From Octopus vulgaris (lineage: Eukaryota), in the NCBI GenBank assembly GCA_951406725.2, contig OX597827.1, positions 79,546,001-79,610,000 of the forward strand: 64,000 nt of DNA, in the 5' to 3' direction. Shown piece after piece: positions 4,023 through 47,196 of the stretch; position 1 is the first letter of the stretch; the number at the start of each line of letters is the position of its first letter. A program made the position numbers and the translations under genes. The notes under the pieces were generated by a model. That model did not search any database. It saw nothing but the letters and a program-made list of their open reading frames with translations, and was not told the DNA's origin.

Positions 4023-6437
4023 CTGTGGAACTGGGGGAAGTTTTCTGGGTGTTGTTGAGTAGTTCCATTCATTGGTCAACTGGTCTATTTCTGGATAGTA
4101 TGAACATTTAGGGTTTATTGACTGAAGATTTCTGCTAAATATCTCTTCTGCATTCTGAGTTATTGCAACAGGATTATTAGTCTGATACAGAATTTGTCTC
4201 ATTTCAGTCCTCGATAGAAATTTTGGATTATCTTTTTCTCCAGATGAATTATTGAAGTGATTAATACATTTGAAAATACATAGTGTTATTGACACTACAA
4301 CAGCCACAGATAGTATTACAGCTGCTGCTACAATGATAATTATCCAGGTCATATTCAGGTTGTTATCAGACTGTGAGTGGATAGCAGTCAACATTGGAGA
4401 TGTATCGTTACTAACAAACAGTGTTAGTATGATAGCAGTTGTTGCTGATTGAACTGGAGTACCACCGTCTTTCACTATAAACTGCAGCTCATATGTTCCT
4501 GCATCATTTTGGTAAACTGTGCGAGAGAAAGATAACACACCAGTGTGTGAGTTCACTGTAAACAGGTTTTTATCATTGGATCTCAGTATTCCATATGTGA
4601 GGAAAGCATTGTTTCCAGTGTCTTTGTCAGATGCTTTCAGAATTGTGATGTCCTTCTTACTGTGTGGATGGTAGTGGACATCTAGATTGTAAGGGTCATT
4701 ATTAGGAAAGATAAAATAAGGTGCATTATCATTTTTATCTAGAATCTCTATAAGAATGTTAGCAGTGTTGTTCAGAGAAGGTGTTCCATTGTCTTTGACT
4801 AAAACCTGTAAATTATAGATGTCTTTCACTTCTCGATCTATTGGTTGTGATGTAGAAATAAATCCATATTTTGTCAGTTGGAAAGGAATGTTATCATTGT
4901 TGTTATCATTGATGATAGAATATGTAAGTTGGCCTCCATCTCCAAGATCAGGGTCTGTAGCATTGATGAAGCCAATAGGGAAGTCAACTTTCTGGTTTTC
5001 ATAGGTGAGGAATTGGAATGTCTCTTTGGTGAAATGTGGTTCTACATCATTGACATCAGTTACTTTGACAGAGAACTGTTTCTTAGTCTTTAATGGAGGT
5101 GATCCCATGTCATGACATACAATAGAAACAACATAATGGTCTATAGTTTCTCTGTCAAGAGGTTCTTTCACCAATATTTTATATTCTTTAGAACCCATAT
5201 TAGAAAGCTGGAACATTTTATGGTGAATATTACATTTAATTTGTCCATTAGGCCCATTATCAGTGTCAATGACCATAACGTAAGCTATAAAACTCCCAAT
5301 TTTACTTGCTTCTGAAATAGCAGTAGAAGTCTTTGTTAAAGGTGATATAAAATCTATATTTATTGCTGGAGCATTATTTTGATTGTTAATTACATTTATA
5401 ATCAACGTTGACATGGAGCTTAATGAAGGATTTCCACCATCCCTAGCTTCAACGTATAACTGGTATTTACTTTCCTTATTTCTAAAGAAATTATCATTGA
5501 TGAAGATTTCTCCAGATTTATGATTTAATTTGAAATACTTTTTATCATATTCATTTGTATTTCTATGTAAAAAATAATTTATATTTCCATTTTGACCAGA
5601 ATCTAAATCTGTTGCTGATAAAACAAAAACAGGAGAAGATATATGATGTGTGTCACTGATGGTGGTATTATATAATTTTTGTGTAAACGTAGGTCTGTTA
5701 TCATTGACATCAATAACAGATATTTCAATGTTCAGAATACCTTCTTTTGGTGGAGAACCCCCATCTCTTGCAATCAACTGTAACATATATGTGTCTTTTA
5801 ATTCTCTATCTAACATTCCTTCTAGAATTATTTTAAGTAAATTTATTCCATCAGATTCTTTAAATATGGAGAGCGAGAATGTTTTGCTTTTATCTTTGAG
5901 TTTATATATTATCTTAGAATTTGGAAGACTAATGTCTTTATCAACAGCATTTGGTATTGATTTTGTTGATCCTTTCCCGTCTGTTTCATCGAATTTGATT
6001 TTTAATTTGTTTGATGGGAACTCTGGTTGATGATCATTAATATCTTCTATAATTATTTTTATCTTTAATATCTTTAGAAATGTTTCCTCTTTCCTTACTG
6101 CTACTTTAACAGTTCTAGAGCATTCTTTCTTGTAAACACAAAGTTTTTCAGCATCCAGTGTTTGAGTAGTGTATAGTTTTCCTAAGCTTGTGACATTAAA
6201 TAAGTGAGAACCACTTGATACTGTTCTCTGTAGTTGTGTAAATGTAATGAGTGTGAGCTGTTGATGTGTAAGAGGATTTGATAGGTTAGAGTCAGCTGCA
6301 ATATCTCCAATGTATGTGTGTGGACTGTCTTCTTCATTGACATGGTAAATGTAGTCTATCGACATGACAGAATACATTAGTCCATAGAAAAGGTAAAACT
6401 GCAAAGTATTGCTTGTCATCTCATTATTGTAATTCAT
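4023..6437 (-). CDS. Pcdh: Protocadherin gene A, large exon (signal peptide, EC1-EC6, TM, proximal cytoplasmic); downstream exons lie off the left edge
   Basis: ORF 3978..6437 has DINDH/DVNDN/LDRE/DxD cadherin motifs, a C-X5-C in EC1 and the TM segment WIIIIVAAAVILSVAVVVSITLCIF. Donor CAG|GT at 4023/4022 is conserved in all paralogs. Acceptor tttttag at 6464-6465. Confidence 0.95.
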
Positions 6438-7531
6438 TATTATTCATGGATATACCTCAAAATCTAAAAAGAATATAAAAGAAATTGCTTGAATCAAACA
6501 GTCATTATACAGAAATATTAATATGGAGAAAATATGTATACTAATATTAAGTGTACAACATTTATCATGTAATATAATCAATAATATTTAGAAATGTTTG
6601 TAACATTATGAAATAATGAAGTAAAATTTTGATAGTCTCATATGTGCCTGTGGCCAGTTTTCTGAATGAAGCAAAATCCATACTTGGTACAACATAGAAG
6701 TATATTCCATAATTATAAAAAAAATTTAAATCATAGTAAATAAAATTATCTCTTCACATATATGAAGTGATTAGAATGAGAATGCATTGCCTCTATATCC
6801 AAAATTAGACATGATAAGAGATTTTAACACATAAACTGTGCTATTTGCTTTTATGAAGTTTTTATGAAAGTTTTCTCATTATGAACTTATTCCTAAGATT
6901 GAAATTACTGAATTACAGATTATAAATAATGTAAAAGAAACACATTATTTTTCAAACACTCTCATTGCATCTATTTATCATACTTAGCTGTTAAATGGAA
7001 TTTGATGTTAGGTCACTTGTGGGTGCATCTGGCAATATCTAACCCAGTCCAACTTGTTTCATAATTAGGTTGTTGCCTACAAAGCTGTTAATTCCACCAA
7101 ACTTGCATGGTGTGAAGGGTGATTTTGGATAAGCTGCAGGATGAATAACAAAACTTATCAAAGAGCAGGTAAACTTAGATAAGTCATTAGCCATCCAATA
7201 AAACATATATATGCAGGTTATATATGTGTATGTTAGTGAAATGTTCATATTTCATTCAAATGAAGCATGGAAGAAATAAGTAATCTTCATCTCCCCAGCA
7301 TTAAAGTTGGCAGCATCAGGCTAATGGGGCAACTTTGAGGTGGAAACATAAAGTCATACAGGATTAAAAGCTATGATGCAGAGTAAATATTGAAAAAAGT
7401 TTTATGACCTGGATATGCACAAAGTTTGATATTTTTTCTTACCTAAACATTTTGTGTTGATATTCAAAGTGAAATAATCTATGTAGTCACTTGGTCTCTT
7501 GAATGTTCTGTCAAGTCTCTTAACAATATAA

Positions 7532-12009: not shown

Positions 12010-12150
12010 ACTTACCTACATTGTTTAATCCGTTGTGCTTCCTATAGAAGACATTATTGCATAGTGTTTCAGTGTAACTGCTGCTGTAGTAGTTTGACAA
12101 GGGCAGTATGTTGATGGTGTAGATTTGTGAGTCATACAGAGAGCCAACTA
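12010..12150 (-). promoter_or_regulatory. Putative promoter and non-coding first exon of gene A
   Basis: Conserved module: TGACTCA (12128-12134), CAGCAGCAGTTACAC, donor GTAAGT at 12015. Confidence 0.65.
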
Positions 12151-13409
12151 TACTCTAAAGACATTTTTTAATCTGAGCATATAGGATTCACTTAAATTAT
12201 TTTACACAATGATTAAAATATTTGAATAATGAATTTTGATAAAGTATTTTCAGTTTATTTCAAACTGCATTAATATGTATACACACACACACACACACAC
12301 ACTTACGCATGTAAGTATATGTCAAAAGGCATACAATAGATATGGATCAGCTTAGAGTTCAGCAGTCTGAATTCCTAAAATCCAACATCCTAACTGTGTT
12401 GCTACATATTCCACTGTTAGAAGGAATGGATAGCAACACAATTATAACTTGAATTGATATATTCCATACTTATTTGTTAACATCAGTTTAGTACATATGC
12501 ATAATGACTATCACTACATCTGTTTGTTACTGAATCCTTGATACGGGTGTAAAAGACTACATTGAGTTATTTTCTTTCTTCTCAGTTGTAATTTTGCTTA
12601 TGAAATCTCTGGAAAGCTACTCATTTATAGAGGAGTACAATTAACTAACTTCTTGTGTTTTACTTAATTATATTTTATATGCATATTTCTGTAAACTATT
12701 TATAAATTTTTTGATGCAATAAATCTCTCATTTTATCTGTGTGTTTGTATGCACACACACACACACACATGCACATAACTAATGAATTATCTCTTGTATG
12801 CAGATGCTTATAACACTGATGTACATATTTATGCACTGTGTACTGCAGTATGTAAAATATTAATTTCTAAGTCCAGTAACAATTTCATTATACATACTAC
12901 AGTGGATTAGTCCTCTATGAAATACCTATCTAGATTACATGAAAAATAACATTGCTGAAAACTATAATTTTAATAATTTTAAAATATTGATCTGAATGTT
13001 CAAAATAGTAGAGTTAGTGCCAGAAATGGTAAATTGTCAAAGTGTATGTTTTCAAGTAGTTTTGTTTCTATATTTTTTAATTGCACAGTATATTGCTAAA
13101 ATATCTGTTATTAATAAACAACTAATGAGGATTTAATATGTTATAAAGTTATCTTTGAAGATTTTGACCAAGTGCATGATCAAAGTTTATCAATTATGTG
13201 TCAACATTTCTAATTTACATATTTACATATTTACATATTTTTTATATATAAACTTGGATTAATTAGTTCTTGCTATGTATCTGCTGGTTAGATCAATTTT
13301 ATTTTAGAAGAGTCTCTTAATTATATTCCATTTCTGGAGTCAAATTGCGAGAGAAATTTAGTTATCCCTAGTACTAAGAATTTGAGTCATGTTAGTCCTG
13401 TGATTATTA

Positions 13410-13498
13410 TTATTTCTTATATATTGGTTCAAGATAAGTGTCTTGTTCTTGTCCACTCTTTGGCATTGGAGGTATGTTTGGTGTATAATTACTATATT
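13410..13498 (-). CDS. Pcdh: Gene B terminal coding exon (EYSNYTPNIPPMPKSGQEQDTYLEPIYKK*)
   Basis: ttttag acceptor, phase 1, 89 nt ending in TAA; conserved in five copies. Confidence 0.9.
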
Positions 13499-13833
13499 CT
13501 AAAAGAGAGAAAAATACAAAATAGTATAACTAATATCTGAGAATAGAATTTTGTGTCAATGAGAAGAAAAAAAATGAAAGAAAAATGTAATCAAATACTT
13601 GGTTCTAAAATAGTCCTGTATTGATATTAAATTAGCTTATCTATTTTCAAAATTTTGTATCTTGGATCTGCTCATGTTACAGCAATTTCTTTCATTTAGT
13701 TTACTTTTCAAGTACTTCCTATAAACTTTGTATATTGCAATAAAAATTATTCAATGTTATGAATATGATACAACTGCACACATGCACATAGACAAAGTCA
13801 GTATCCAATGTTTGTTGATATTTGACAAGTTAC

Positions 13834-13981
13834 CTGCTGGTTGATGCTTAATATCCCCTTCATTCCAAGCACAGTTGTGATCTCTTTGAGATGGCAATGT
13901 ATCACTTAGGTTGTTTGATGTCAAAGTGCTACTGTTGTCACCTTGCTCATAAGACCCGTCTGCAACCTGTTTATTGTAGAT
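13834..13981 (-). CDS. Pcdh: Gene B cytoplasmic exon 1 (IYNKQVADGSYEQGDNSSTLTSNNLSDTLPSQRDHNCAWNEGDIKHQPA)
   Basis: cag|ATC...G|gtaact; 148 nt, phase 0/1, open frame; a homologous exon follows each paralog. Confidence 0.9.
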
Positions 13982-16900: not shown

Positions 16901-19540
16901 CTTGGGGTTAGTAGCCTGCGCTCTTAACCACTACATCATATACCCGTGGGCAATTATGGAGTGAATTTTAGGGCTTATAAATCTAATATTTTTCTATCCT
17001 TCCTTAGTTCCGGATGAAGGCTGGAGGCGATATCAGCTGAAACATTATGTTAACAACAAACAAGATAAGGACAAATATCCATCATGCACAACAGAACACC
17101 TCTTTCCCCTTCGGTCATTCTCTTTCCTCTCATCACCTAGCACAAAGCCACCTACTTCAACACTCCATACCACTCAAGTGAGCTTTGCCTTGCAAGTTTC
17201 TTGGTGACCTTGATAGCACTGGTACCTCACAAAAAGTACGCAGTTTACTAAGGAAGGTGGTTGGTGTTAGGAAGGGTGTCCAGCTGTAAAAAGCAGGCCA
17301 AAGTAGACAGTGGAGCTTGGTATAGTGCTGTGACATAGCAGCTCCAGTCAAACCATCCAATCTATACTAGCAGTGAATCACTGTTTCATAATCTCTTGTG
17401 TCTATATGAATTAGAATTTGATGACCTATACAACATTGAAAAGTATAGATGAAAGAAGATAATAAAAAATATAACACTTGAAAAATAGATATATGGCATA
17501 GGTACCTGTGGAACTGGTGGACGTTTTCTGGGTGTTGTTGAGAATTTCCATTCATTGGTCAACTGGTCTATTTCTGGATAGTATGAACATTTAGGGTTTA
17601 TTGACTGAAGATTTCTGCTAAATATATCTTCCGCATTCCGAGTTATTGCAACAGGATTATTAGTCTGATACAGAATTTGTCTCATTTCAGTCCTCGATAG
17701 AAATTTTGGATTATCTTTTTCTCCAGATGAATTATTGAAGTGATTAATACATTTGAAAACACACAGTGTTATTGACACTACAACAGCCACAGATAGTATT
17801 ACAGCTGCTGCTACAATGATAATTATCCAAGTCATATTCAGGTTGTTATCAGACTGTGAGTGGATAGCAGTCAACATTGGAGATGTATCGTTACTAACAA
17901 ACAGTGTTAGTATGATAGCAGTTGTTGCTGATTGAACTGGAGTACCACCGTCTTTCACTATAAACTGCAGCTCATATGTTCCTGCATCATTTTGGTAAAC
18001 TGTGCGAGAGAAAGATAACACACCAGTGTGTGAATTCACTGTAAACAGGTTTTTATCATTGGATCTCAGTATTCCATATGTGAGGAAAGCATTGTTTCCA
18101 GTGTCTTTGTCAGATGCTTTCAGAATTGTGATGTCCTTCTTACTGTGTGGATGGTAGTGGACATCTAGATTGTAAGGGTCATTATTAGGAAAGATAAAAT
18201 ACGGAGCATTATCATTTTTATCTAGAATCTCTATAAGAATGTTGGCAGTGTTATTCAGAGAAGGTGTTCCATTGTCTTTGACTAATACCTGTAAATTATA
18301 GATGTCTTTCACTTCTCGATCTATTGGTTGTGATGTAGAAATAAATCCATATTTTGTCAGTTGGAAAGGAATGTTATCATTGTTGTTATCATTGATGATA
18401 GAATATGTAAGTTGGCCTCCATCTCCAAGATCAGGGTCTGTAGCATTGATGAAGCCAATAGGGAAGTCAACTTTTTGGTTTTCATAGGTGAGGAATTGGA
18501 ATGTCTCTTTGGTGAAATGTGGTTCTATATCATTGACATCAGTTACTTTGACAGAGAACTGTTTCTTAGTCTTTAATGGAGGTGATCCCATGTCATGACA
18601 TACAATAGAAACAACATAATGGTCTATAGTTTCTCTGTCAAGAGGTTCTTTCACCAATATTTTATATTCTTTAGAACCCATATTAGAAAGCTGGAACATT
18701 TTATGATGAATATTACATTTAATTTGTCCATTAGGTCCACTATCAGTGTCAGTTACCATAACATAAGCTATAAAACTACCAATTTGACTGTCTTCTGAAA
18801 TAGCAGTTGAAGTCTTTGTTAAAGGTGATACAAAATCTATATTTATAGATGGCACATTATTTTGATTGTTAATTACATTTATAATCAACGTTGACATGGA
18901 GCTTAATGAAGGATTTCCGCCATCCCTAGCTTCAACATATAATTTATATTTATTTCTTTTATTTCTGAAGAAATTATCATTGGTGAAAATTTCTCCAGAT
19001 TTATGATTTAATTTGAAATACTTTTTATCATATTCATTTGTATTTCTATGTAAAAAATAATTAATATTTCCATTTTGACCAGAATCTAAATCTGTTGCTG
19101 ATAAAACAAAAACAGGAGAAGATATATGATGTGTGTCACTGATGGTGGTATTATATGATTTTTGTGTAAATGTAGGTCTGTTATCATTGACATCAATAAC
19201 AGATATTTCAATGTCCAGAATACCTTCTTTTGGTGGAGAACCTCCATCTCTAGCAATCAACTGTAACATATATGTGTCTTTTAATTCTCTATCTAACATT
19301 CCTTCTAGAATTATTTTAAGTAAATTTATTCCATCAGATTCTTTAAATATGGAGAGTGAGAATGTTTTGCTTTTATCTTTGAGTTTATATACTATCTTAG
19401 AATTTGGAAGACCAATGTCTTTATCAACAGCATTTGGTATTGATTTTGTTGATCCTTTCCCTTCTGTTTCATAAAATTTGACTTTTAATTGGTTCGATGG
19501 AAACTCTGGTTGATGATCATTAATATCTTCTATAATTATT
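13990..19540 (+). repeat. Near-identical duplicated or converted segment, copy 2
   Basis: Matches 1..~6055; has ~295 bp extra at 16278-16570 and lacks ~2832-3605 of copy 1. Confidence 0.92.
16753..16798 (-). ncRNA. Minimal type I hammerhead ribozyme motif (duplicate)
   Basis: Identical to 2499-2544. Confidence 0.65.
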
Positions 19541-19905
19541 TTCACCTTCAAAATCTTCATAAATGTTTTTCCTTTCCTCACTGCTACTTTAACAATTCTG
19601 GAACATTCTTTGTTGTATGTACACAGAGACTCAGCATCCAGTGTTTGAGTAGTGTATAGTTTTCCTGAGTTGGTGACATTAAATAAGTGAGAACCACTCT
19701 CGACTGTCCTTTGTAGTTGTGTAAATGTAATGAGAGTGTGTTGTTGATGTGTGAGAGGGTGTGATACGTTGGAGTCAACAGCAATGTCTCCTATATAGGT
19801 GTGAGGACTGTCTTCTTCATTGATATGGTAAGTAATGTCTAAGGCTACACCAAAATACAGTAAGCCATAAAAAATGTGAAGCTGTAAAGTGTTGATTGAA
19901 ACCAT
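17506..19905 (-). CDS. Pcdh: Protocadherin gene B, large exon
   Basis: ORF 17386..19905, six EC repeats plus TM. Donor CAG|GTACCT at 17506/17505; acceptor AG at 19939-19940. Confidence 0.95.
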
Positions 19906-20989
19906 TGTTGTTATTCATTATCTTTCATAAATATTTATCTAAATTTAAAAAGAAAAGAGAGCTTGTTAATTGAATCATACAATCTAATATAGAAATGTTA
20001 ACTATATGAAAATTATAGATAGTTTAAACTGAGAGATGAAAAATATGAGAAACTTACTAATCCATAATGTTTAGTAACTTCTGTAATATAATTGATGAAA
20101 ATTAGTTGTTAAGTTATTAACTCAGGTGAAATTAAAGTAATGTCAGCCATTGTCGGAATTGATCTGGAATTGAACTGAGAGACTAAACCAAATTCCATAA
20201 AATGTTTTGTCAACACTTTATACATTACTTAATTTTTAAAACTAATTGTATAAATGGATATAGAAAGTGTGCAATGAGGACCTGGTGTTGTGTACCATAT
20301 AGTAAATGAATCAACAATTTGAATTGATTCTTATATAAAGCTCACTTGAGCTTTTCCTTTTTATATCATCCTATATCTGTAGTCAGATTAGATTTTAAAA
20401 AATATCTGTCATTGTCTCAGATTATTCATCAAAAGGTTTAATTTAAAAGTTTTTATATCAACCAAATTACAGAGCTGATTTTTAAAAAGTACTAATTTAT
20501 GTCTTCGCCCTATTCTTGGATACTCTTTCAACTTAGCTTTACACCATTTCAAAGTAAACATAATTATTGACACTTACAATTCTTGTTGGACGATATAGTG
20601 TTGCAAAATAAATTCAGTAGTTAATCCCTTGGTCTCCAAGATATATTTATGAAGCTTTTCAAATTTGTGGCAGCCAATATATTTTCTATGATAACTATTA
20701 AAAACAATAGAGTTATTCCCCCTTCTAATATTTTGAATATTTCCTTCTTTTTCTTAGGTTAATAAAAGTTTGAAGAAGGTCCCATGTTAGCTGAGATACA
20801 AAAAAATATGTGAAAATGTGCTTCCTAGGTCTGTAAACAACATTCAGTGGCCTCGAAATGAATTCAACAAAGGCTAAAGATTTACCAAGCATATAGAAAA
20901 GTAGCCAGTGCAATGTTCACACACATACACACTCGCACAAAAGGGCGCACTTACTCAGTATAGCAGATTGTAAATTTGTATGCTGTACT

Positions 20990-23765: not shown

Positions 23766-23910
23766 ACTTACTGTTATTGAGAAATCCTTTGTTTGGGCCT
23801 CTTATAGAAGACATTATTGTGTAGTGTTCCAGTGTAACTGCTGCTGTAGTAGTGTGACAATTGCAGTATCCTGATGGTGTAGGTTTGTGAGTCAAATAGG
23901 GAGCCAACTA
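23766..23910 (-). promoter_or_regulatory. Putative promoter and non-coding first exon of gene B
   Basis: TGACTCA at 23888-23894, same core, donor GTAAGT at 23771. Confidence 0.65.
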
Positions 23911-24798
23911 CTCTTTAAAGAATCTATGTTTGGTGCATAATGAATTTGTTTAAATTATTTTAAACAATGGCTGAAATATTTTATAATTAATTTTACAATA
24001 GCTCTAATTTATTTTAAAGTACATGAATATGTACGTATGCACACACACGCGCACACAAACACGCATGTGCACACACACACACACACACAAGTATTACATT
24101 CTACTTGAACATGTATGCTTATGACACCCTAATTTATATGCTCATGTTTACACATTGTGTATTGCAATAAGTAAAATACCAATTTCTCATTTCAATGGTA
24201 ATTTAATGGTACATATTGTAGTGGATTGAACTGGAGAATAATTATTGTAATTACATAAAAATTATAGACATTTTGCAATTTTATTTTGACCATTCTATTG
24301 TTTATTCATTAACCTGTGATAGTATATTATTAGTGACTAGTATAAGTGGTTGTAAAAATTGTAGAATTTTGGAGTAAATGTTTTCTTGTACTTTTGTTTT
24401 TATATTTATATATTTTCTGACAACATTTCTTTTTTTGCAGGGTAAACACAAACTGTACTTTTAATATACTAGAGGAAATTCCAAATATTTTACCCCATCT
24501 TTTGAATATTTTGGCTTAGTATATGTCCAAATTAAATTATGATATTTATGAATTTGAATGAACTAATTTGTTTATTCTTGAGTTACAGTTTGAAGGAAAA
24601 TATTTACAAATACATATTATTAATGTATAAATTTAGCTATATTAGTTGAAATTACATTATTCTGTATTTTCAAATTAATTTTACTTTATTTTAAAGCAGA
24701 AGCTATGTTTTGATTCTGTTGCCTTATTAATATTAAATGCAAGGAAACTTTAATAATCTCCAAAGCAAAGAATTAGAATTGTGTTTATTTTGAGTTTA

Positions 24799-24887
24799 CT
24801 ATTTCTTATATATTGGTTCTAGATATGTGTCTTGCTCATGTTCATCTTTTAGTATTGGAGGTATGTTTGGTGTGTAGTTACTGTATT
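24799..24887 (-). CDS. Pcdh: Gene C terminal coding exon (EYSNYTPNIPPILKDEHEQDTYLEPIYKK*)
   Basis: tttcag acceptor, 89 nt ending in TAG, homologous to paralogs. Confidence 0.9.
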
Positions 24888-25315
24888 CTGAAAGATAAAA
24901 AAAATATTTATTTAATAAGAGTTGAAAGGGACAGCTACCCTATATTATGCCAATGCTTTTATTAAATTAATCCAACATTATTATATTAGTTTTATATTAT
25001 ATTATGTAAGATTTAGCTGCTTACATTAAAACACATTCTTTTAAATAGTTTACTCTTTGAGTATCTTATATAAACCTATAAACCTTTTTACATTACAATA
25101 AAGGGATTTGAGGTTATAAAATATGATTCAATTGTTGCTGTGAGCTTATATGAAATCAGTGTTTATTGTTGCAGGTAATCATTGAAAGATATCCATTCAT
25201 TTATACTCTTTAAATCTTTTATATGACATTAAAAAAACAGTGTTATAAATATGATACATGTGTATCCATGCATTTATGGGAAGTAGGTGTCAGCATTTGT
25301 TATTTGACAAGTTAC

Positions 25316-25463
25316 CTGATATATGATTTTTAATATCTCCTTCACTCCATCCACGGCAGCGATCTCTTTGAGACGGTAATGTATCACTTAGGTTGTTTGA
25401 TGTCACAATGCTGCCATTGTCACCTTGCTCACAAGACTCATCTGAAATCTGTTTATTGTAGAT
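25316..25463 (-). CDS. Pcdh: Gene C cytoplasmic exon 1 (IYNKQISDESCEQGDNGSIVTSNNLSDTLPSQRDRCRGWSEGDIKNHIS)
   Basis: 148 nt inside ORF-track entry 25290..25481; CAGCAG acceptor, G|gtaact donor. Confidence 0.9.
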
Positions 25464-26674: not shown

Positions 26675-29086
26675 CTGTGGAACTGGTGGAAGTCGCCTGG
26701 GTGTTGTTGAGAATTTCCATTCATTGGCTGATTGTTCCATCTCTGGATAATATGGACTTTTGGGGTTTATTGACTGAAGATTTCTGCTAAATATCTCTTC
26801 TGCATTGCGAGTTATTGCAACAGGATTGTTTGTCTGATACAGAATTTGTCTCATTTCAGTCCTCGATAGAAATTTTGGATTATCTTTTTCTCCAGATGAA
26901 TTATTGAAGTGATTAATACATTTGAAAACACACATTGTTATTGACACTACAACAGCCACAGATAGTATTACAGCTGCTGCTACAATGATAATTATCCAAG
27001 TCATATCCAGGTTGTTATCAGACTGTGAGTGGATAGCAGTCAACATTGGAGATGTATCATTACTAACAAACAGTGTTAGTATGATAGCAGTTGTTGCTGA
27101 TTGAACTGGAGTACCACCGTCTTTCACTATAAACTGCAGCTCATATGTTCCTGCATCATTTTGGTAAACTGTGCGAGAGAAAGATAACACACCAGTGTGT
27201 GAGTTCACTGTAAACAGGTTTTTATCATTGGATCTCAGTATTCCATATGTGAGGAAAGCATTGTTTCCAGTGTCTTTGTCAGATGCTTTCAAAATTGTGA
27301 TGTCCTTCTTACTGTGTGGATGGTAGTGGACATCTAGATTGTAAGGGTCATTATTAGGAAGTGTAAAATATGGAGCATTATCATTTTTATCTAGAATCTC
27401 TATAAGAATGTTGGCAGTGTTATTCAGAGAAGGTGTTCCATTATCTTTGACTAAAACCTGTAAATTATAGATGTCTTTCACTTCTCGATCTATTGGTTGT
27501 GATGTAGAAATAAATCCATATTTTGTCAGTTGGAAAGGAATGTTATCATTGTTGTTATCATTGATGATAGAATATGTAAGTTGGCCTCCATCTCCAAGAT
27601 CAGGGTCTGTAGCATTGATGAAGCCAATAGGGAAGTCAACTTTCTGGTTCTCATAGGTGAGGAATTGGAATGTCTCTTTGGTAAAATGTGGTTCTACATC
27701 ATTGACATCAGTTACTTTGACAGAGAACTGTTTCTTAGTCTTTAATGGAGGTGATCCCATGTCATGACATACAATAGAAACAACATAATGGTCTATAGTT
27801 TCTCTGTCCAGAGGTTCTTTCACCAATATTTTATATTCTTTAGAACCCATATTAGAAAGCTGGAACATTTTATGGTGAATATTACATTTAATTTGTCCAT
27901 TAGGTCCTCTATCAGTGTCAGTGACCATAACATAAGCTATAAAACTTCCAATTTTACTTGCTTCTGAGATAGCAGTAGAAGTCTTTGTTAAAGGTGATAC
28001 AAAATCTATATTTATAGATGGCACATTATTTTGATTGTTAATTACATTTATAATCAACGTTGACATGGAGCTTAATGAAGGATTTCCACCATCCCTAGCT
28101 CCAACATATAACTGGTATTTACTTTCCTTATTTCTAAAGAAATTATCATTGATGAAGATTTCTCCAGATTTATGATTTAATTTGAAATACTTTTTATCAT
28201 ATTCATTTGTATTTCTATGTAAAAAATAATTAATATTTCCATTTTGACCAGAATCTAAATCTGTTGCTGATAAAACAAAAACAGGAGAAGATATATGATG
28301 TGTGTCACTGATGGTGGTATTATATAATTTTTGTGTAAATGTAGGTCTGTTATCATTGACATCAATAACAGATATTTCAATGTCCAGAATACCTTCCTTT
28401 GGTGGAGAACCTCCATCTCTAGCAATCAACTGTAACATATAAGTGTCTTTTAATTCTCTATCTAACATTCCTTCTAGAATTATTTTAAGTAAATTTATTC
28501 CATCAGATTCTTTAAATATGGAGAGTGAGAATGTTTTGCTTTTATCTTTGAGTTTATATATTATCTTAGAATTTGGAAGACTAATGTCTTTATCAACAGC
28601 ATTTGGTATTGATTTTGCAGTTCCTTTGCTGTAATATTCATCAAACTGTAATTTTATTTGCTTTTGAGGAAACTCTGGCTGGTGGTCATTAATATCTTCT
28701 ATAATTATTTTTATCTTCAATATCTTTATAAATGTTCCTGCTTTCCTCACTGCCACCTTAACTATTCTGGAACATTCCTTGTTGTATGTACACAGAGACT
28801 CAGCATCCAGTGTTTGAGTAGTGTATAGTTTTCCTGAGTTGGTGACATTAAATAAATGAGAACCACTCTCGACTGTCCTTTGTAGTTGTGTAAATGTAAT
28901 GACAGTGTGTTGTTGATGTGTGAGAGGGTGTGATAAGTTGGAGTCAACGGCAATGTCTCCTATATAGGTGTGAGGACTATCTTCTTCCTTGACATAGTAA
29001 GTAATGTCTATAGAAACTACAGTATACATCAGTCCATAGAGAAAGTAAAATTTTATGTGTTGATTATAATCATTGTTGTAATTCAT
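26675..29086 (-). CDS. Pcdh: Protocadherin gene C, large exon
   Basis: ORF 26636..29086; donor CAG|GTATCT at 26675/26674; acceptor AG at 29107-29108. Confidence 0.95.
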
Positions 29087-30499
29087 TATTTGTCATGAAT
29101 ATTGTTCTAAAAAAGAAAAATCATTTTGAATTAATGCTACATATATTTGATTTCATCAGTTTTATATATATAAAAGGTTTTATATATGCAAAATACATGT
29201 TTCTTTAAAAGCCAAATGCATTTAATTTATCCAGTTATTATCTTGAAGCATTCGTGACATCCTGAAATATTTGATATAGTTTATAAAAATTAAGACTTGA
29301 GGTAATATCTTGAAGTAAAAACTTTATACATGCTTGGAGGTTGTTATCTAAATGAAAATAAGTTAATAGTTATTGCAATAGATATTTTATCAGATAATCT
29401 ACAAGATTAAATAACGCTGTTAAGGATCTTGAAAAACATTAGAGTTGTTCCCCCTCCTCAGTTTTCGTATATTTCTTTTAAGATGATCAGCGATAGAATG
29501 GATTCTAAAGTCGGTGAAACCAATTGAACATTTCTATTAAAATTTTGGAATCGTCTTCAAAATAATGCGACTCTGTATTACACAGTTTTTATTTGAAATT
29601 GATGAGTAGTTACGTAATGAAATAATGATAACTGACTGAGTTTGTGCTGGTTTTCACTATTTTTTTCCTCAATGAAAATAATTCTGATTTAACATAATAA
29701 ATTATTCGCTAAAATATAAAATGAACATCTAAAGCTTTAGCCAAAAACATATAGTATGGTTGTAGTCAATCAACCTTATGGCAGCTACATGTTGGTTTAG
29801 CGCTTGAAAATACAAAACTTCTGTCTGACATGAAAAATTATTTTGTACACATTGCAATATCTCTTTGGGATTCATAGTTGAATCTAGAGCATGTTTCCTT
29901 ATACGGTTGCAGTGTTCTCTATATGTGAGAAACACCTAAAACAGCTACAGCCAGCATTGCTGTAGGTGCTTCTAAAATTTTCAGCAAATATTAAAAAAAA
30001 AATCCTATACTAATTCATAGATTTTTTTTTAAAATGTCTATTGAACTTTGGTGACCATTGAGTAATAAGTTATGGATACAATTTTGTTGTAGTGTTCTCT
30101 ATATGTGAGAAATAATTCAGTAAACTATAGTTATGGCACATTATGAAGCTCAACAAAGTGAAATTTTCACAAATACTAAAAATATAATCCAGGTGCTTTA
30201 CAATATGTAATTTTGCACTTCAACATTAAATTCCTCCAGTTTTACTGATCCAGTAGCAATAAAGTAATGATAATTCATAATTAGAGATCTTTTTGAAATT
30301 ATGCTTCTTTTTAAAAAAGTTTATAATTATTCATATATATACACACACATCATACTACCAATTCCATTCACTACTAAAAATCTTAGCCACACCCTGGCAC
30401 CTGGTTCATTTCCTCCCCATTCTCTCCCCACAAATTAATGACCTCAATTTGCTACTCTTTGTCTTTTTCCACAGATTTTGTATATATATATATATATAT

Positions 30500-32953: not shown

Positions 32954-33098
32954 ACTTACCAAAATTATTCAATCTTTTGTGATTCTTATAACAGGCATTT
33001 GTTCTTTTGTAGTGTTCCTGTGTAACTGCTGCTGTAGTAGTTTGACAATGACAGTATCTGTACGGAATAGATTTGTGAGTCATAGAGGGAGCCAATTA
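32954..33098 (-). promoter_or_regulatory. Putative promoter and non-coding first exon of gene C
   Basis: TGACTCA at 33076-33082, same core, donor GTAAGT at 32959. Confidence 0.65.
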
Positions 33099-33728
33099 CA
33101 GTTTGAAATACTTTTTTTTTATCTATTCTTATTGTATCTATTTAAATTTATGCACTTTAAACAATGATTAAAGCATTTAATAATGAATTTTGCAGTAAGT
33201 ATTTTTAATATACAGTAATATATACATATATATAGTAGATTTACTCTTGTACATGAATGTTTACAACACACTAACATACGGGCACACACATGCTCATGTT
33301 CATGCAATGATTATTACAATATGTGAATATTAACTTCTATCCTAAATAGCAATATCACAACATATGTGACAGTGGATTATGGCATAAAGTATTCATTTAG
33401 ATTGAATTCTAAATGTTTTATAATTTTTCTAAGTTATTGATAATTTTATAATTTAAAGATAATTTTTATAATTCGAAAATATCAACTCATATTTTAATTT
33501 TTTAAATCGTATATTATTTGAAAATACAATAGATGGTGACAAAATTGTAGATTATTGAAGCAAGTGTTTTCTAATATGACGTTCTTATATTTTCAGACTG
33601 CAGACTATATGAAGCTTAAACTCCTTTCACTAGCAGCACCTCTAATATAATACATGATTTTGGCCTAATGTGTAACCAAAATAATCAGTTTCATCATCAT
33701 GCATTTTGAATTTGAATTATCCCATTTG

Positions 33729-33918: not shown

Positions 33919-34007
33919 TTACTGCTTATATACTGGTTCAAGATATGTGTCTTGTTCATGTTCACCTTTTGGTATTGGAGGTATGTTTGGTGTATAGTTA
34001 CTGTATT
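33919..34007 (-). CDS. Pcdh: Gene D terminal coding exon (EYSNYTPNIPPIPKGEHEQDTYLEPVYKQ*)
   Basis: tttcag acceptor, 89 nt ending in TAA. Confidence 0.88.
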
Positions 34008-34900
34008 CTGAAAGATAGAGAAAAACATAAATATATTATAATTTTCTTATGATATTGTGTTTATGAATGAAGAATAAATGTCTTTCTTCTAAACAATTCT
34101 TACTTGGATATTAGGTTTTACTTGCAATTTATATTTATCATAGATAAATGGATCTGCAGTAAAGAAGCTTGCTTCTCAACCACTTGGAGCTGGGCTCAGG
34201 CCCACTGCTTAGCATCTTGGGAAAGTGTCTTCTAAAACAACCTTGGGATGACCAAAGGCATGTGAGTGGATTTGGTAGACAGAAACAAGCCCCTTGTACA
34301 TGTTTTTGTGTGGTGGGTAGGGATAGATGTAAACAAATGTCATTAGCATTCAAACACTTTTCTTTGCTTCCAGTCTTCCTCGAAAACATGTCTGATCATG
34401 GGGAAATATGATCTTGCCTGGAATCAGTTGAGAGTTTGGTGACAAGAAGGGCATCTGAGTATAGTAATTCTACCTCAACAAATTCCATCTGACCCATGTA
34501 AGTATGGAAAAGTGGATGTTAAAACAACACTGCTACAGTTGATATGTCAATTTTGCATGTGTTTTAACCTTGGTATAGAAATTCTTTTCAAATACCATAT
34601 TCAGTTGCTTATCAGGTCACTTTTTAAAAATGTGTTCCAAAAAATCAGCCTGTATTTCATAAGCATAAGGTTTGGGTTTAGGTTACTAGCAAATGGCAGT
34701 TCAAGAATAAACCTGCCATAATTGAAATAATATGTTTATGTGTTCTATAAACTTTAAATACAGTATTATACACTCCTGAGTATTTGATATAAACCTCTTA
34801 TATTACAAAAAAAAAATGTTTCATTTATAAATATGATGTAATTGTACCAGTAAGTTTATACAAAGTCAATATACACGATTGTTGATAATAGGTAATTTAC

Positions 34901-35033
34901 CTGATGTCTGATGTTTAACATCAGCTTCATTCCATCCATGTTTGCAATCTCTTTGAGATGGCAATGTATCACTTAGGTTGTTTGATGTCACAATACTGGT
35001 GTTGTCAATTTGATCACAAGATCCACCTGAAAC
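34901..35033 (-). CDS. Pcdh: Gene D cytoplasmic exon 1 (VSGGSCDQIDNTSIVTSNNLSDTLPSQRDCKHGWNEADVKHQTS); 5' boundary uncertain
   Basis: Homologous open frame with a G|gtaaat donor. The ancestral acceptor position (35049-35050) reads GG; the nearest in-frame AG is at 35034-35035. Confidence 0.7.
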
Positions 35034-36567: not shown

Positions 36568-38967
36568 TTGTGGAATGGATGGAAGTCTCCTGTGTGTTGT
36601 TGAGAATTTCCATTCACCACTTAACTGGTCTATCTCTGGATAATATGGGCTTTTAGGATTTATAGATTGAAGATTTCTGCTAAATATATCTTCAGCATTC
36701 CGAGTTATTGCAACAGGGTTGTTTGTCTGATACAGAATTTGTCTCATCTCAGTCTGAGAGAGAAATTTTGGATTATTTTTTTCTGCAGATGAATTATTGA
36801 TGTGATTAATACATTTGAAAACACACATTGTTATTGACACTACAACAGCCACAGATAGTATTACAGCTGCTGCTACAATGATAATTATCCAAGTCATATT
36901 CAGGTTGTTATCAGACTGTGAGTGGATAGCAGTCAACATTGGAGATGTATCGTTACTAACAAACAGTGTTAGTATGATAGCAGTTGTTGCTGATTGAACT
37001 GATGTACCACCGTCTTTCACTATAAACTGCAGCTCATATGTTCCTGCATCATTTTGGTAAACTGTGCGAGAGAAAGATAACACACCAGTGTGTGAGTTCA
37101 CTGTAAACAGGTTTTTATCATTGGATCTCAGTATTCCATATGTGAGGAAAGCATTGTTTCCAGTGTCTTTGTCAGATGCTTTCAGAATTGTGATGTCCTT
37201 CTTACTGTGTGGATGGTAGTGGACATCTAGATTGTAAGGGTCATTATTAGGAAAGATAAAATATGGAGCATTGTCATTTTTATCTAGAATCTCTATAAGA
37301 ATATTGGCAGTATTATTCAGAGAAGGTGTTCCATTGTCTTTGACTAAAACCTGTAAATTATAAATGTCTTTCACTTCTCGATCTATTGGTTGTGATGTAG
37401 AAATAAATCCATATTTTGTCAGTTGGAAAGGAATGTTATCATTGTTGTTATCATTGATGATAGAATATGTAAGTTGGCCTCCATCTCCAAGATCAGGGTC
37501 TGTAGCATTGATGAAGCCAATAGGGAAGTCAACTTTCTGGTTTTCATAGGTGAGGAATTGGAATGTCTCTTTGGTAAAATGTGGTTCTACATCATTGACA
37601 TCAGTTACTTTGACAGAGAACTGTTTCTTAGTCTTTAGTGGAGGTGATCCCATGTCATGACATACAATAGAAACAACATAATGGTCTATAGTTTCTCTGT
37701 CAAGAGGTTCTTTCACCAATATTTTATATTCTTTTGAACCCATATTAGAAAGCTGGAACATTTTATGGTGAATATTGCATTTTATTTGTCCATTAGGCCC
37801 ACTGTCGGTGTCAGTGACCATAACATAAGCTATAAAACTTCCAATTTTACTTGCTTCTGAAACAGCAGTAGAGGTTTTTGTTAGTGGAGATACAAAATCT
37901 ATATTTATAGATGGCACATTATTTTGATTGTTAATTACAGTGATAATCAACATTGCCATGGAACTTAATGAAGGATTTCCACCATCTCTAGCTTCAATGT
38001 ACAATTGATATTTATTTTCTTTATTTCTAAAGAAATTATCATTGATGAAAATTTCTCCTGTTTTAGAATTTAATTTGAAATGTTTTCTGGCATATTTATT
38101 TGTATTTCTATGTAAATAGTAAGTAATGTTCCCATTTTGACCAGAATCTAAATCTGTTGCTGATAAAAGAATTACAGGTGAAGATATGTGATGTGTGTCA
38201 GTGATGGTAGTATTATATGATTTTTGTGTAAACATTGGTTGGTTGTCATTAACATCTGTAACAGAAATATATATTTTCAATATACTTTCTTTTGGTGGAG
38301 TACCTCCATCTTTAGCTACTAAATGTAACATGTAACTGTGAATTTCTTCTCTGTCTAACATTCCTTCTAAGGTTATTTTAAGTAAGTTTATTCCATCAAA
38401 TCCTTTAAATATGGATAGTGAGAATTTCTTGCTTTTATCCTTCAGTTTATATGTGATGTTAGAATTAAGAAGACCAATGTCTTTATCAACAGCATTTGGT
38501 ATTGATTTTGTTGATCCTTTTACATCTGTCTCATAAAACTCTATTTTAATTTGATCATCTGGAAACTCTGGTTGATGATCATTGATATCTTTTATAATTA
38601 TTTTTATCTTCATTATCTTTATAAATGCTCTTGCTTTCCTCACTGCTACTTTAACAATTCTGGAACATTCCTTGTTGTATGTACACAGAGACTCAGCATC
38701 CAATGTCTGAGTAGTGTATAGTTTTCCTGAGTTGGTGACATTGAATAATTGAGACCCACTTGATACCATCCTTTGTAGTTGTGTAAATGTAATGACTGCA
38801 TGTTGCTGGTGTATAAGTGAATGTGATATGTTAGAATCAGCTGCAATATCTCCTATATATGTGTGTGGACTGTCTTCTTCATTGACATGGTATATAATAT
38901 CTATGCACACAACTGGATACATTATCCCATACAGAATGTAAAGCTGCAGAGTGTTGATTACACTCAT
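36568..38967 (-). CDS. Pcdh: Protocadherin gene D, large exon
   Basis: ORF 36553..38967; donor CAA|GTATGT at 36568/36567; acceptor AG at 39006-39007. Confidence 0.95.
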
Positions 38968-40635
38968 TATTGTAATTCATTATTACAATTCATAAATCCA
39001 TACATCTAAAATAAAATTTTAAAATATTAGCTTATTCACACAAATACATTTTAAAGTATTGCAGAATGTACTTATATAAAATCCTCCTTACTTTTCAGTC
39101 ATAATTAAGATTTCTAGAAATGTCTTAAATTTTTGATTGATAAATGAACTTGTTAATCTGGAGATATAGTCAAGGTAATGACCTGATTGATTTTTAAAAT
39201 TTTATTTTATCAGTCTCCACAGTTGCATGTTACCTGTTAGCTAAAGAAAAAGAAAATTCACAAAATGTCATAGCCACAAGCTCACATCAATATCCTTTAT
39301 TCTGAAAATTTAACTTAATACTATCTAAATTATAAAGTATAGTTTTCAACTGTTTTGTATAACGCAAATTATGTAAATGAGAATGAAGTATTGATTAATT
39401 TAATAAAACATAAGACAATATCAAAAAAAGTAAAAAATAAATTACTGAGATGCAAGTGTGATTATGACACAAAAACACAAATTGAACTGATATGAGTATC
39501 TTTATAACTAGATGATAAACTAAAGGTAAACATATTTTACTAAACTAAACTAAATATTTTACTAATAATGAGTTGTGCCTGTAAAAGTTTGGAGAGAAGA
39601 ATGATTTGAAAACTGAACCAACTCAGTATGGCAAGCGAATCTGTTTCTTCGATATATCTTATATGGGACTATTTTTATCATTAAAGAATGACGTTGTGTT
39701 TGATAGGTAGAATGATTAGAGCATCACCCAGTTTGCTATTTGTCACAGCTCTTGACATTCTGAGTTGAAATACCACCAATGTTAGCTTTGCTTTCCTTCC
39801 TTCTGGGGTCAATAAAATTTTACTTCACTAAAGTAAAACTTAATAAAGACCTACTCATTATATAAATATTTGCAATTTGTGATACATTTTTGCAAAACTA
39901 GTTCTGAAATAATTACCTTCTTTTTAAGTTTCATTCTCATATCTTACTTTTATGAATGAACTCATAAAAATGCATATTTTTAAAACATTCTAAAACTTTA
40001 GAGTTACCTCCCCTATTTTCTTCTACTATTGCTTTTATGGTGTATAAAAATTATTGAATATGTTCGATTGAACACTACACACTGTATTGGAATTTCTCAA
40101 TAGCTTTTAAGTGATGCAGCTCAGTGTTTATATAATCATTTTTCGTTTGTTTTCTTAATTCTATGATGAAATAGTGGCCTTTTTAATGATATCCCTTTTT
40201 TAACTGCTATCGAAATTAATATGAATTTCTTCATTTGAAACATATCCCTAAAATTATACCACATCATTTAGATTATTTTTGTTGTTAATCAAGTGCAATT
40301 ATTTATATTCAAGTACAGAATTGGCCAATTACGTTTTTTTTTTGTTCTGTTCTGCAATATGAGAAAGATTTTTAAAAAAGTTGTTTTTTTAATTTTTAGC
40401 CAGAAGGAAAAGTTTTGCCCATGTCCATTGCAGACCCCATTGTAACTGGTGAAATAGACATGGTTAATGTCCCTCAATTTAAGTCAATGGTTGCATAAAT
40501 TACACTGAGCTTCAGGGATATTTCCTCAATATTTTTTATCCATCTTGCTCCGAATAACTGAAAACTCATTTGATAACTTTTTTTTAAGGATTCACAGAGC
40601 ACAGCTCTTAAACATAATGCAATTATTAATGTTTC

Positions 40636-43284: not shown

Positions 43285-43430
43285 ACTCACCTATTTTGCT
43301 TAATCCTTTGTTCTTGTCCCTTAGAGAAGACATTCATCATGGCGTAGTGTTCCAGTGTAACTGCTGCTGTAATAATGCCACAATAGCAGTATCTTGGTTT
43401 GTAGATTTGTGAGTCATAGTTGGGTAGCAG
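43285..43430 (-). promoter_or_regulatory. Putative promoter and non-coding first exon of gene D
   Basis: TGACTCA at 43410-43416, same core, donor GTGAGT at 43290. Confidence 0.62.
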
Positions 43431-44525
43431 TTTCATGTTAGGGAATTCTATTTAACTTTGTATATTGTATATATATATTTAAAAATTACTTTTCATTATA
43501 AGATTGTTTTTGGTCTAAAGTGAAATATATTTTGGTCTATAACTGAATATAGCATATAATCATCAGATTGTGCCATATTCATAATTCTAAATTCACTCAC
43601 GCATATCTGTCTAAACATGTATATCTGTCTAAACATACACACATTCTTGTGATGCATAGTCCTTTTAATTTTTATCCTTAACAGCTATTTTCCAATAGTT
43701 CTTACAGTAATCATTGAATTACTAATAATTCATTTAAAATTTTAGGAAAACTGAAAAATTGCAGTAATTTTATCTGTTATTTTTATTTATTCATAATTTT
43801 AAAAGTAAATTTAAAATATCAACTAAAATTATAATACTCAAAATAAACTGGGACAAATATGGTAGCATGTTGGATTATATGCATTATAATATATTATGAT
43901 CAATCTGAAATCAGAATTTTCATGGGAAATCCAATTTATCTTCATCATTAAACTTCAATGTTTCAACCCATGTTCATGACCTGAATGGTTTGACAGGACT
44001 GCAATGGGGTCCACTATCCACTTTGGCATGATTTCTATGGCTGGATGCCTGTTCTAACACCAACCACTTTACAACATTTACTGGGTGCTTTTTTTCATGC
44101 CACCAGCACCAAAGAGCTCAGCATTTATCTTGCAAGAATATTATCTCCGAGAGAGGTAGCTTTATGCTAGTAGAGAAGGGAGTTAAAGTAGTAGAGTAGA
44201 ACATATTTCTTGTAGTAATTATCTATACAAGTACACCCATTGTATAAAAATGGCCTTAAAAAGGATCAATCAAATATTTGTGAGCATTTAGAATGATAAT
44301 GATTTTATTCACTTTACAGCTAAGGCATAGTCTCCATGTAAATAACTGCAAATAAATATTTTTAATATATAAAGTTTGATGAATTTATTTGCATCATGTG
44401 TTACTATGTTTGATGGTAAATGATATTTATCTTAATACTACTATTAGTAATGTTTGATGTTATATCTCAATGTAAATTAATAATTTCTATGATAAAGAAT
44501 CAAAATTTGGCTAATTTTGAGTTTG

Positions 44526-44614
44526 CTATTTCTTATATACAGGTTCTAGATATGTATCTTGTTCATGATCACTCTTTGGTGTAGGAGGTATGTTTGGTGT
44601 GTAGTTACTGTATT
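44526..44614 (-). CDS. Pcdh: Gene E terminal coding exon (EYSNYTPNIPPTPKSDHEQDTYLEPVYKK*)
   Basis: tttcag acceptor, 89 nt ending in TAG. Confidence 0.88.
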
Positions 44615-44698
44615 CTGAAACATACAGAAAAATACTTTAAAAATAGTTTTGAAAGGAAAATGTTTACACACACGCACACACACACATATATATAAAAA

Positions 44699-46758
44699 AT
44701 GGGGAAGGCCGGTTTATGGGATTACGTTAGGTTTCCCATCCATAAAGGGTTTAGCTTTATGGTGTATCATCAGATCAAAAAAAATGCCTTCATTACCATA
44801 AAAGATCATAAACCAAATTTTGCCTCAAACCCTAAATGCTGCCTGATCAATCTGGCCAAATCCAAGATTGGTCTGGTGACCAAGCACATATTGAAAGATA
44901 TCAATAATGACATAAGGAGGGCCACCAGCCTATCCTTGTGGTGCAACATCAATGAAGTGACCGCATGGTTTAACACCAACAAGGGAAGAGGCAGAGCAAG
45001 GTTTACCCAGTTTGATATAGTCGACTTTTATCTGTCTGTATCAAAAAGACTACTGGCCAAGAAGCTTTCTTTTACTAGGGGCTTCACTGACATCAGTGAC
45101 AGAGATATAAAAGTCATAATGCATGCCAGAAAGACAGTGCTGTTCAACAAAAGTTCAGCATGGGTCGAGCAATCCAACCCCACAGGCTCCTTTGATGCAG
45201 TAGTGGGAGCCTTCAATAGTGCTGATGTATGTGACCTCATTGGATTATATAACGTTGACACCCTTAGGAGAAAGTTCCCCTCTGTCCTCTTTGTATTCAA
45301 CAGAGATGATATTCCAGCCATCTCTAGGGGAGCAAATGGACATACACTAGACAGGCTGAGAAAAGATCTAATCAGCACATTTGCCTCCATGGGATAGAAA
45401 ATCACAATAGAAACCAACCTCACAACTGCAGACTTCTTAGATGTCACACTCGTCTTGGGCTCCAGTACATACAGGCCCTACTGCAAACCAAATGAGAAAC
45501 TAACATACATTAACACAGCCTCCTTCCACCCACTTATCATGTTCAAAAACCTGGGGAAGTGTGTTAGTAAGAGGATCACAAACCTTTCCTCCAATGAAGA
45601 GATTTTTGATACAGTGACCCCGCACTATAATGAGGCCCTAGCTGCCAGCAGATTTAGGGACTGCATCTCCTACATGCTGCAGAAAGAAGCACTGCAGAAA
45701 TACCATTTGGTTTGCCCTCACCCCCACTTCTCTCTCAACTCAATAACCCCATAGATAGTATAATCCTTAACTTATAAGCATTTCACTAGCTCCCACTGAT
45801 ACAGGCCCATTTTCAACAGGCACAACATTACAGTCTCATTTAGCTGTGCTCCCAATATTAAGAGCATCCTAGTTAGTGCCCCTAGGCCATGGGGAAGAGG
45901 CAGGATGTTCATGCCAAGACCACAACAGATGTCTGGTAGGAGACCACTGTGAAACCAAGGGGGGGGGGTCGTCTATGAAGCCAAAGTACTAGCAAACTCT
46001 GGCAATACCACAGGTAGAAGTAGTAGCAGCTGTAGATATGAGAACAGTACCAGCAACACCGCCACCATCACCACAGTTAACAACATTACCAGTAATAACA
46101 AAAGCAGCATTGGCTCAACAGCAACTTCGCCATCAGCAGCAGCATTACCAACAGCTTCCCTGACGTCCACAGTAGTAGACCCGACAACCCCTGTAGCAGC
46201 AGCAACAGATCCAGTGCCACCACCAGCAATCACAGCAATAATGACAATAATGGCAACAGCAGCAGCAATGACAGTGGCCCCAGCAGAAACACCAGCAGAA
46301 CCACAGCTAATGACACTGCTATCAGCAAAGGCAACTCTCCCACTAATGACGAGGACCACAATAACAACAACAGTACCTGCATCATAACTGGCAATGGCAA
46401 TACCATTACTGATGCCTCTACCACCACCTCCAGCAATGCCAACATGTTTATATTTCAGGAGGTATCTGCTAGCCTTTTGGAGCCCACAAGATGGTAGCAC
46501 AGCTGGAAGTCGATAGCCAATAGAAAAAGCTGATGATTCCCAATTGTTACTTTTGAGTAGAGAGGCATTTCCTCCTCCATATTTTTAAGAGGTTTTGGGC
46601 CAACAGGTTTTGGGATTTGATTATATGCCATAAAGCTATACCCTTTATGGACAGGAAATCTAAGGTAATCCCATAAACCAGCCATATCCATTCTTAATAT
46701 ATACTGCTCTACATCTTAGACTGTGCTTCTTCTTTTTGATTTATGTCTTTTACAGACA
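44699..46758 (+). mobile_element. Penelope-like retroelement (Naiad-like RT), degenerate, with an inverted terminal segment
   Basis: AFITIKDHKPNF..NPKC.LIN, QFDIVDFY, GAF.SADVCDLIGLY, NRDD, DFLDVT, SFSCAPN, C.C....C.....C..VVYEA. 44699-44776 is an inverted copy of 46614-46691. Sits among (CA)/(TA) tracts. Confidence 0.85.
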
Positions 46759-47039
46759 ATATATATATATATATATATATGAATATTAAAAAACCTACTT
46801 CATCAACCATATGTTCAAATTAAATAACCATTTGCTTCAACTTTAACATTTAATATATTTAACACTCAACTATTGTACTATGAATCCTTTTGATTAAAAT
46901 TTTTCTCACTAGTGAACTATTTAGAATCATAAAGAAACAATTTCATATTTTATTATAAAGTTGTTTATTTATGATACAACTGTGCCAATGCCTTTATAAG
47001 AATTCAACACTGTAAAAGTGATAATACTTGGCAAATTAC

Positions 47040-47196
47040 CTGATATTATTGAAGTTTGATGTGAAATATCTCCTTCACTCCATCCACGGTTGCGATCCTT
47101 TTGAGATGGTAATGTGTCACTTAGATTGTTTGATGTCACAATACTATTATTGTCGCCTTGTTCACATGACCCATCAGAAACTTGCTTATTATAGAT
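47040..47196 (-). CDS. Pcdh: Gene E cytoplasmic exon 1 (IYNKQVSDGSCEQGDNNSIVTSNNLSDTLPSQKDRNRGWSEGDISHQTSIIS)
   Basis: ttag|ATC...G|gtaatt; 157 nt (9 nt longer, frame preserved). Confidence 0.88.

Follow-up and report, generated by a model that had tools for sequence, protein, structure and literature searches.

Each of the five intervals between six tandem octopus protocadherin genes contains one copy of a short recurrent module, and when the readings that make it a first exon are taken together, the module is probably the promoter and leader exon of the gene downstream. The version that we tentatively prefer, judging from the sequence, is that it would comprise the proximal promoter and a short non-coding first exon of that gene, with TGACTCA serving as the site of a shared AP-1-class bZIP activator, and not as a one-gene switch. 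The constraint on the module is focal and lies at a 10-mer that includes this heptamer; the whole module is no more conserved than the neighbouring synonymous sites.

Organisation of the protocadherin array

The window, i.e. the whole 64-kb stretch of DNA that was analysed, contains six large protocadherin exons, all on the minus strand, each of which encodes six cadherin repeats and a transmembrane (TM) segment. The large exon of gene 1 (4023..6463, acceptor at 6463, ATG at 6437) covers the signal peptide, EC1-6, TM and the start of the tail. Those of genes 2 to 5 are located at 17506..19938 (ATG 19905), 26675..29106 (ATG 29086), 36568..39005 (ATG 38967) and 48227..50659 (ATG 50637), and that of gene 6, which has no module upstream of it in the window, at 57216..59650 (ATG 59615). 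Compared with the other five genes, gene 5 has two insertions of 1 nt that break its frame, at about 48920 and 48560. The O. sinensis member of the gene 5 cluster, P0124, is an intact protein of 884 aa, so gene 5 is either a recent pseudogene or an assembly error.

Comparison of the intergenic intervals revealed three blocks that recur in every unit, namely two coding exons, A and B, and the module. Exons A and B complete the tail of the upstream gene with its own stop codon, and the exon-B peptide is a C-terminal ending shared among relatives. The private tail of gene 2 (13410..13981, minus strand like all the others) consists of A at 13981-13834 and B from 13498 to the stop at 13410, and ends as the homolog P0125 does. 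The corresponding exons were found at 25463-25316 and 24887 to the stop at 24799 in gene 3 (24799..25463), at 35033-34901 and 34007 to the stop at 33919 in gene 4 (33919..35033), at 47196-47040 and 44614 to the stop at 44526 in gene 5 (44526..47196), and at 55101-54951 and 54660 to the stop at 54581 in gene 6 (54581..55101). With its own tail exons and stop, each protocadherin gene is therefore complete, which agrees with the statement in PMC9068888 that the cephalopod PCDH expansion proceeded by full gene duplication, without shared final exons. The closest relatives were 'protocadherin beta-15-like' models of Octopus vulgaris and Argonauta (76-90% identity), and the O. vulgaris model P0001 equals gene 2 over the large exon, which makes the window DNA of O. 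vulgaris or an exact counterpart of it. Having six repeats and TM in one large exon, a tandem arrangement on the same strand and private tails, the six genes are members of the octopod clustered protocadherins (O. vulgaris, O. sinensis, O. bimaculoides, Argonauta).

Several further features of the array were recorded. When genes 1-4 and 6 were compared over their large exons, the differences at fourfold sites were 0.15-0.20 in EC1-EC4, 0.086 in EC5, 0.014 in EC6, 0.007 in TM and 0.24 in the tail, and the amino-acid identity was 80-85% in EC1-3 and 96-99% in EC4-6. Domain-wise concerted evolution is strong across these exons. In vertebrate clustered Pcdh, EC2-3 stay variable and the membrane-proximal repeats are homogenised. 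In genes 1 and 2, the introns after the large exon (1-2314 and 13990-16278) were 97.8% identical over 2.3 kb, unlike the modules of these two genes, with about 82% identity; this suggests that a duplication or conversion took place recently, with its breakpoint within the large exon. Two near-identical units were also observed within O. sinensis P0121. Each large exon begins with a number of ATGs that lie in different frames (ATGAATnACAAnAATG; e.g. at 6463-6400 and 19938-19880). Genes 1 and 3 have the first shared ATG in frame, genes 2 and 4 have it out of frame, and in consequence the signal peptides are very divergent (43% identity). The intron between the tail exons of gene 5 contains, on the plus strand, a 232-aa ORF (44699-45397), which gave no Pfam match and whose nearest Atlas clusters are reverse-transcriptase-like (0.94); it is likely a retroelement fragment. 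A dispersed repeat family of ~150-200 nt was found in introns, in both orientations, at 35755-35999, 40643-41068, 51371-51595 and 55503-56522.

Copies and layout of the module

We located exactly five module copies in the window, one per interval between the six genes and all on the minus strand. C1, upstream of gene 1, occupies 12010..12154, with TGACTCACAA at 12134-12125 and the last exon base, followed by the donor GTAAGT, at 12016. For C2 (gene 2; 23766..23914), C3 (gene 3; 32954..33102) and C4 (gene 4; 43285..43436), TGACTCACAA was found at 23894-23885, 33082-33073 and 43416-43407, and the last exon base at 23772, 32960 and 43291, respectively. C5, the most diverged copy (gene 5; 52988..53143), has TGACTCACAA at 53123-53114 and its last exon base at 52994. 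These are the only five occurrences of TGACTCACAA in the 64 kb, all on the minus strand, with the first T at the higher coordinate of each pair; CAGCAGCAGTTACAC is present in four of the five copies. The preliminary description of this stretch had reported a ~140 bp module recurring once per gene, at the lower boundaries given here, and the motif and profile searches bear it out. The five-copy profile regained the same five copies with E from 2e-41 to 8e-34, a match by construction, and found no further copy below E=1 in the window.

The module lies 1276, 905, 837, 1110 and 1458 nt beyond the stop of the previous gene, within the 0.8-1.5 kb reported earlier, and this stop is not part of the large exon; it sits in a small coding exon, the third. 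From the heptamer to the donor we measured 112, 116, 116, 119 and 123 nt. The introns between module and large exon are 2334-5552 nt long and place the module 2.4-5.7 kb from the ATG. The spacing is not frame-preserving, as had been observed before, with indels of 1, 4 and 7 nt between copies; only one gapped column falls in the first 76 and 15 fall in the last 58, and such a fixed first part followed by a loose one is as expected for a promoter followed by a UTR. No module was found within the 4.35 kb available upstream of gene 6, where the corresponding introns of the other genes measure 2.3-5.6 kb, and a copy belonging to gene 6 may lie outside the window. A sixth paralog of the module is visible as peptide in O. 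sinensis P0121.

We also considered other classes of element. The copies share no conserved reading frame, and the ATG in TATGACTC is present in only three of the five and always runs into a stop; the frame-breaking indels and the stops exclude a coding exon or a conserved uORF. A protein search with a module reading frame scored none of 149 candidates. A structured RNA was rejected on a folding energy of -4.7 kcal/mol and no covarying fold (covariation term +0.72, unfavourable), and Rfam gave no match for the two of five copies tested. A transposon fragment was rejected as well, the profile search having found no copies beyond the homologous positions in the window. Scanning metagenomes for the two-motif pattern gave no matches.

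Focal conservation of the 10-mer

In TGACTCACAA, all ten columns were invariant (0/100 pairwise differences), compared with pairwise differences of 0.27-0.36 elsewhere in the module. A run of at least 10 invariant columns had P 0.003-0.009 by column permutation, depending on the span, in a test that is post hoc and uses five related copies; a run of 7 invariant columns alone was not significant (P 0.08-0.14). The invariance extends 3 nt beyond the heptamer (CAA), and this extension is not obviously needed by AP-1. The onset of conservation is abrupt at the T of TGA, only two of the 20 columns upstream being invariant. Within the module, the 10-mer is thus better conserved than the rest, at the P values given above. 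The earlier statement that TGACTCACAA is intact even in the most diverged copy held, with identity in five of five, including C5, the module of the frame-broken gene 5. With 9 occurrences of TGASTCA against an expected 11.9, the window shows no enrichment, and the signal is one of positional conservation, not of abundance.

The module as a whole behaves differently from the 10-mer. It contains 51 invariant columns of 118, compared with 7-23 per 120 nt in the flanks and 66 of 136 in exon A, and the contrast with the flanks arises partly because these are AT-rich and indel-prone. The pairwise difference over the whole module was 0.282 vs 0.307 at the fourfold sites of exons A+B (54/176), so that most of the similarity between modules is explained by shared descent.

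The donor and its junctions in gene models

Every module ends in a GT(A/G)AGT donor (GTAAGT in four copies, GTGAGT in C4) at 112-123 nt from the heptamer, precisely as first described, vs about 0.04 such sites expected per 130 nt. Of 19 minus-strand GTRAGT sites in the window, five end a module, and in two of the five intervals, that of C3 included, the module donor is the sole GTRAGT. A T-rich acceptor precedes the ATG of each large exon, position for position where it had been placed before, so the large exons need an upstream exon.

The O. vulgaris protein P0001 (CAI9733468.1, 879 aa) was reproduced letter for letter only via the junction 12016->6463. The exact path has six exons and GT-AG introns, the last of which is 12015-6464; it drops the homology-supported stop of exon B by using a 4-nt micro-exon, which suggests that the predictor was forced by an intron hint. 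The proposal that the module donor joins the next large exon thus finds indirect support in one gene model; the corresponding junctions predicted for the remaining copies are 23772->19938, 32960->29106, 43291->39005 and 52994->50659. P0127 splices from the C3 donor, and so does P0121 in O. sinensis. Four of the eight linkers in fused or run-on models cross a module (P0001, P0127 and two of five in O. sinensis P0121, with none in P0043), and the remaining four bypass it. All four crossing linkers exit at the homologous donor, and they enter at +93, at +25 (twice) and at about +51; one exit with three entry points fits a real donor without a real acceptor. Of the two P0121 linkers, one is the C3 ortholog (31/32 residues) and the other is the sixth paralog. 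Only P0001 uses the native acceptor exactly; the splice of P0127 and that of one P0121 linker end at sites within the large exon. These junctions may be ab initio rather than transcript-derived, a choice that is possible at C3, where the donor is the sole GTRAGT of its interval. Among the first 120 homologs listed, P0001 was the only credible module match. The public octopus annotations P0001, P0127, P0121 and P0043 fuse or run on neighbouring protocadherin genes, several of them by way of the module, which accounts for these models.

It is also conceivable that the module is a passenger, a piece of the 3' UTR or spacer of the upstream gene that is more stable in length than the AT-rich flanks and carries the motif and donor by chance. 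Its divergence is about equal to that of synonymous sites, its distances follow those of the upstream exons A+B (rho 0.77) no less closely than those of the downstream 5' end (0.70), and no conserved poly(A) signal was found between stop and module (none in interval 3). We nevertheless regard this explanation as very unlikely, given the invariant 10-mer (P<0.01), the perfect donor in all five copies against the expectation stated above, the exact 12016->6463 junction in P0001, and the strong acceptors before the large-exon ATGs with their need of an upstream exon. A tree test for the gene that owns the module did not discriminate, as the upstream tail exons and the downstream 5' end performed alike.

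A different exon assignment arises from the invariant YAG-CAG at +50..+54, present in five of five copies. The module would then be an internal exon, whether the second of the 5' UTR or one that joins neighbouring genes by read-through. We judge this quite unlikely and give the same low standing to its specific form, in which TGACTCAC is the branch point and YAG-CAG a tandem acceptor. The branch-point consensus is YTNAY, and CTCAC at +3 matches it in all five copies. One P0121 linker seems, as deduced from the peptide, to enter at TACAG|CAG, and read-through fusions of octopus PCDH transcripts have been reported in O. vulgaris (PMC9712504). Against the internal exon, the YAG-CAG has no T-tract, and in an acceptor model trained on all 16 real acceptors of the window, the best YAG at +50..+54 scored -5.1, -3.9, -3.7, -2.8 and -6.6, with 15 of the 16 real acceptors between -0.9 and 11.3; one real acceptor, at -4.7, scored below the best module YAG of three copies. 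Moreover, the putative branch A stands at a distance of about 44 nt, AGs intervene in four of the five copies, and the gene models differ on the entry point, which they reach by micro-exons. The internal exon is disfavoured. The earlier statement that the module has no conserved acceptor is thereby qualified: the YAG-CAG has neither a T-tract nor a high score, but as an acceptor-like word it is invariant in all five copies.

A proposed promoter and non-coding first exon

If the module is a promoter with a first exon, as we prefer, both would have been carried along whenever a whole gene was duplicated. The start of transcription would fall within the module, perhaps at GCAGTT, an initiator-like word ~55 nt beyond the motif, and splicing would connect a first exon of 62-76 nt with the large exon over 2.3-5.6 kb. 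Competence would be conferred on the entire sub-array by the motif held in common, and the set of genes expressed in a cell type would depend on the diverged flanks or on distant enhancers. TGACTCA is described as the 7-bp AP-1 site in PMC7532970. The heptamer TGA(C/G)TCA is exact in five of five copies, on the same strand and at the same position; it is an exact match to the AP-1/TRE word and, unlike AP-1/TRE, it is extended by the invariant CAA. The modules have neither a suitably spaced TATA box nor an exact TCAKTY initiator, and GCAGTT is shifted by 3 nt in C5.

The other first-exon reading, which we hold to be somewhat unlikely, takes TGACTCACAA for the start site itself or for the site of a non-bZIP factor; all of the 119-130 nt would then belong to the 5' UTR, and the match to AP-1 would be fortuitous. 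BBCABW is an initiator-type consensus, and CTCACA fits it at +3 in all five copies, the only position common to all; among the initiator, TATA and DPE words, only this one is exact in every copy. The abrupt onset at the T of TGA and an invariant run of 10 nt, longer than the heptamer, also fit a start site, and an annelid CAGE study reports pyrimidine-purine initiators (PMC7854359). On the other hand, initiators are degenerate, so that ten invariant bases would be unusual, no DPE-like word occurs at a fixed +28, and three of the five leaders would gain an extra upstream ATG.

A promoter and leader exon duplicated together is ordinary as a class of object. Among the papers that our literature searches listed, we found no description of cephalopod protocadherin promoters or non-coding first exons. 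The module is real and probably undescribed so far. It gives a tangible common element with which to test how cephalopods choose among their 150-300 clustered protocadherins, along with candidate promoters, exact junctions and a single invariant 10-mer for mutation or footprinting.

Comparison with known promoter-choice systems

In the preliminary description, the module was interpreted as a CSE-like promoter element. The 5' module per gene, the donor to the large exon (in P0001) and the conserved 10-mer of that interpretation are indirectly supported, but the likeness to the CSE is not. The vertebrate Pcdh CSE is reported as a CTCF site that contains CGCT, is sensitive to CpG methylation and keeps a set distance from the ATG (PMC7811963, PMC3333863). 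CGCT is absent from four of the five octopus copies and falls in a non-conserved column in the fifth; the copies contain 0-3 CG each, with no position in common; and of 37 window matches to a CTCF-like site (consensus with up to 3 mismatches), one lies in a module (C5) and none is shared. The octopus module also differs from the CSE in lying 2.4-5.7 kb from the ATG, across an intron, and in carrying a splice donor. The module is not a CSE, and this argues against a CTCF-type element at the promoters of this protocadherin sub-array. What the two have in common is one element per gene in a head-to-tail array (in five of five complete intervals here), likely associated with a promoter, and the module may still act like a CSE in the weak sense that the genes have a promoter element in common, one each.

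The gene architecture differs too, as vertebrate clustered Pcdh have shared constant exons and the octopus genes have private tails (PMC7811963, PMC3333863, PMC9068888). For whole-gene duplicates with private tail exons, a promoter per gene is the default and no choice mechanism is needed; the sequence holds nothing that points to vertebrate-style random choice among genes. A CSE analogue, with stochastic neuronal choice among protocadherin promoters coupled to activity by AP-1, is a reading by analogy and highly improbable. The single shared motif per gene and the head-to-tail array would suit it. A 2023 review expects that cohesin-type stochastic regulation may apply to cephalopods and notes a lack of functional evidence for what cohesin does in spiralians (PMC10658181). 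Squid has CTCF and cohesin (PMC9023564), and three PCDH, called non-clustered, were up with enrichment in O. vulgaris qPCR (PMC7465212). Against such an analogue speak the lack of conserved CGCT, CpG or CTCF-like sites and of shared constant exons, as well as expression. Single-cell data from O. vulgaris put the number of PCDH at about 19 per cell and 21 per neuron, of which some are ubiquitous and others enriched in cell types (PMC9712504), a split that is similar in squid (PMC12240821) and points away from sparse stochastic expression; near-identical paralogs and short-read ambiguity may blur these per-cell counts. Equally improbable, in our view, is an independently evolved, CTCF-free variant in which AP-1-anchored promoter cassettes compete for common enhancers and thereby choose an activity-coupled subset per neuron.

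Another invertebrate system for comparison is that of the chelicerate sDscam genes, which, as summarised in PMC6339937, carry tandem 5' cassettes with alternative promoters. The octopus array resembles them in being a tandem array of invertebrate genes for neuronal recognition in which each unit has a promoter, a putative one in octopus. The difference lies in the unit, since in sDscam the choice of alternative promoters operates among 5' cassettes, whereas each octopus unit is a complete gene.
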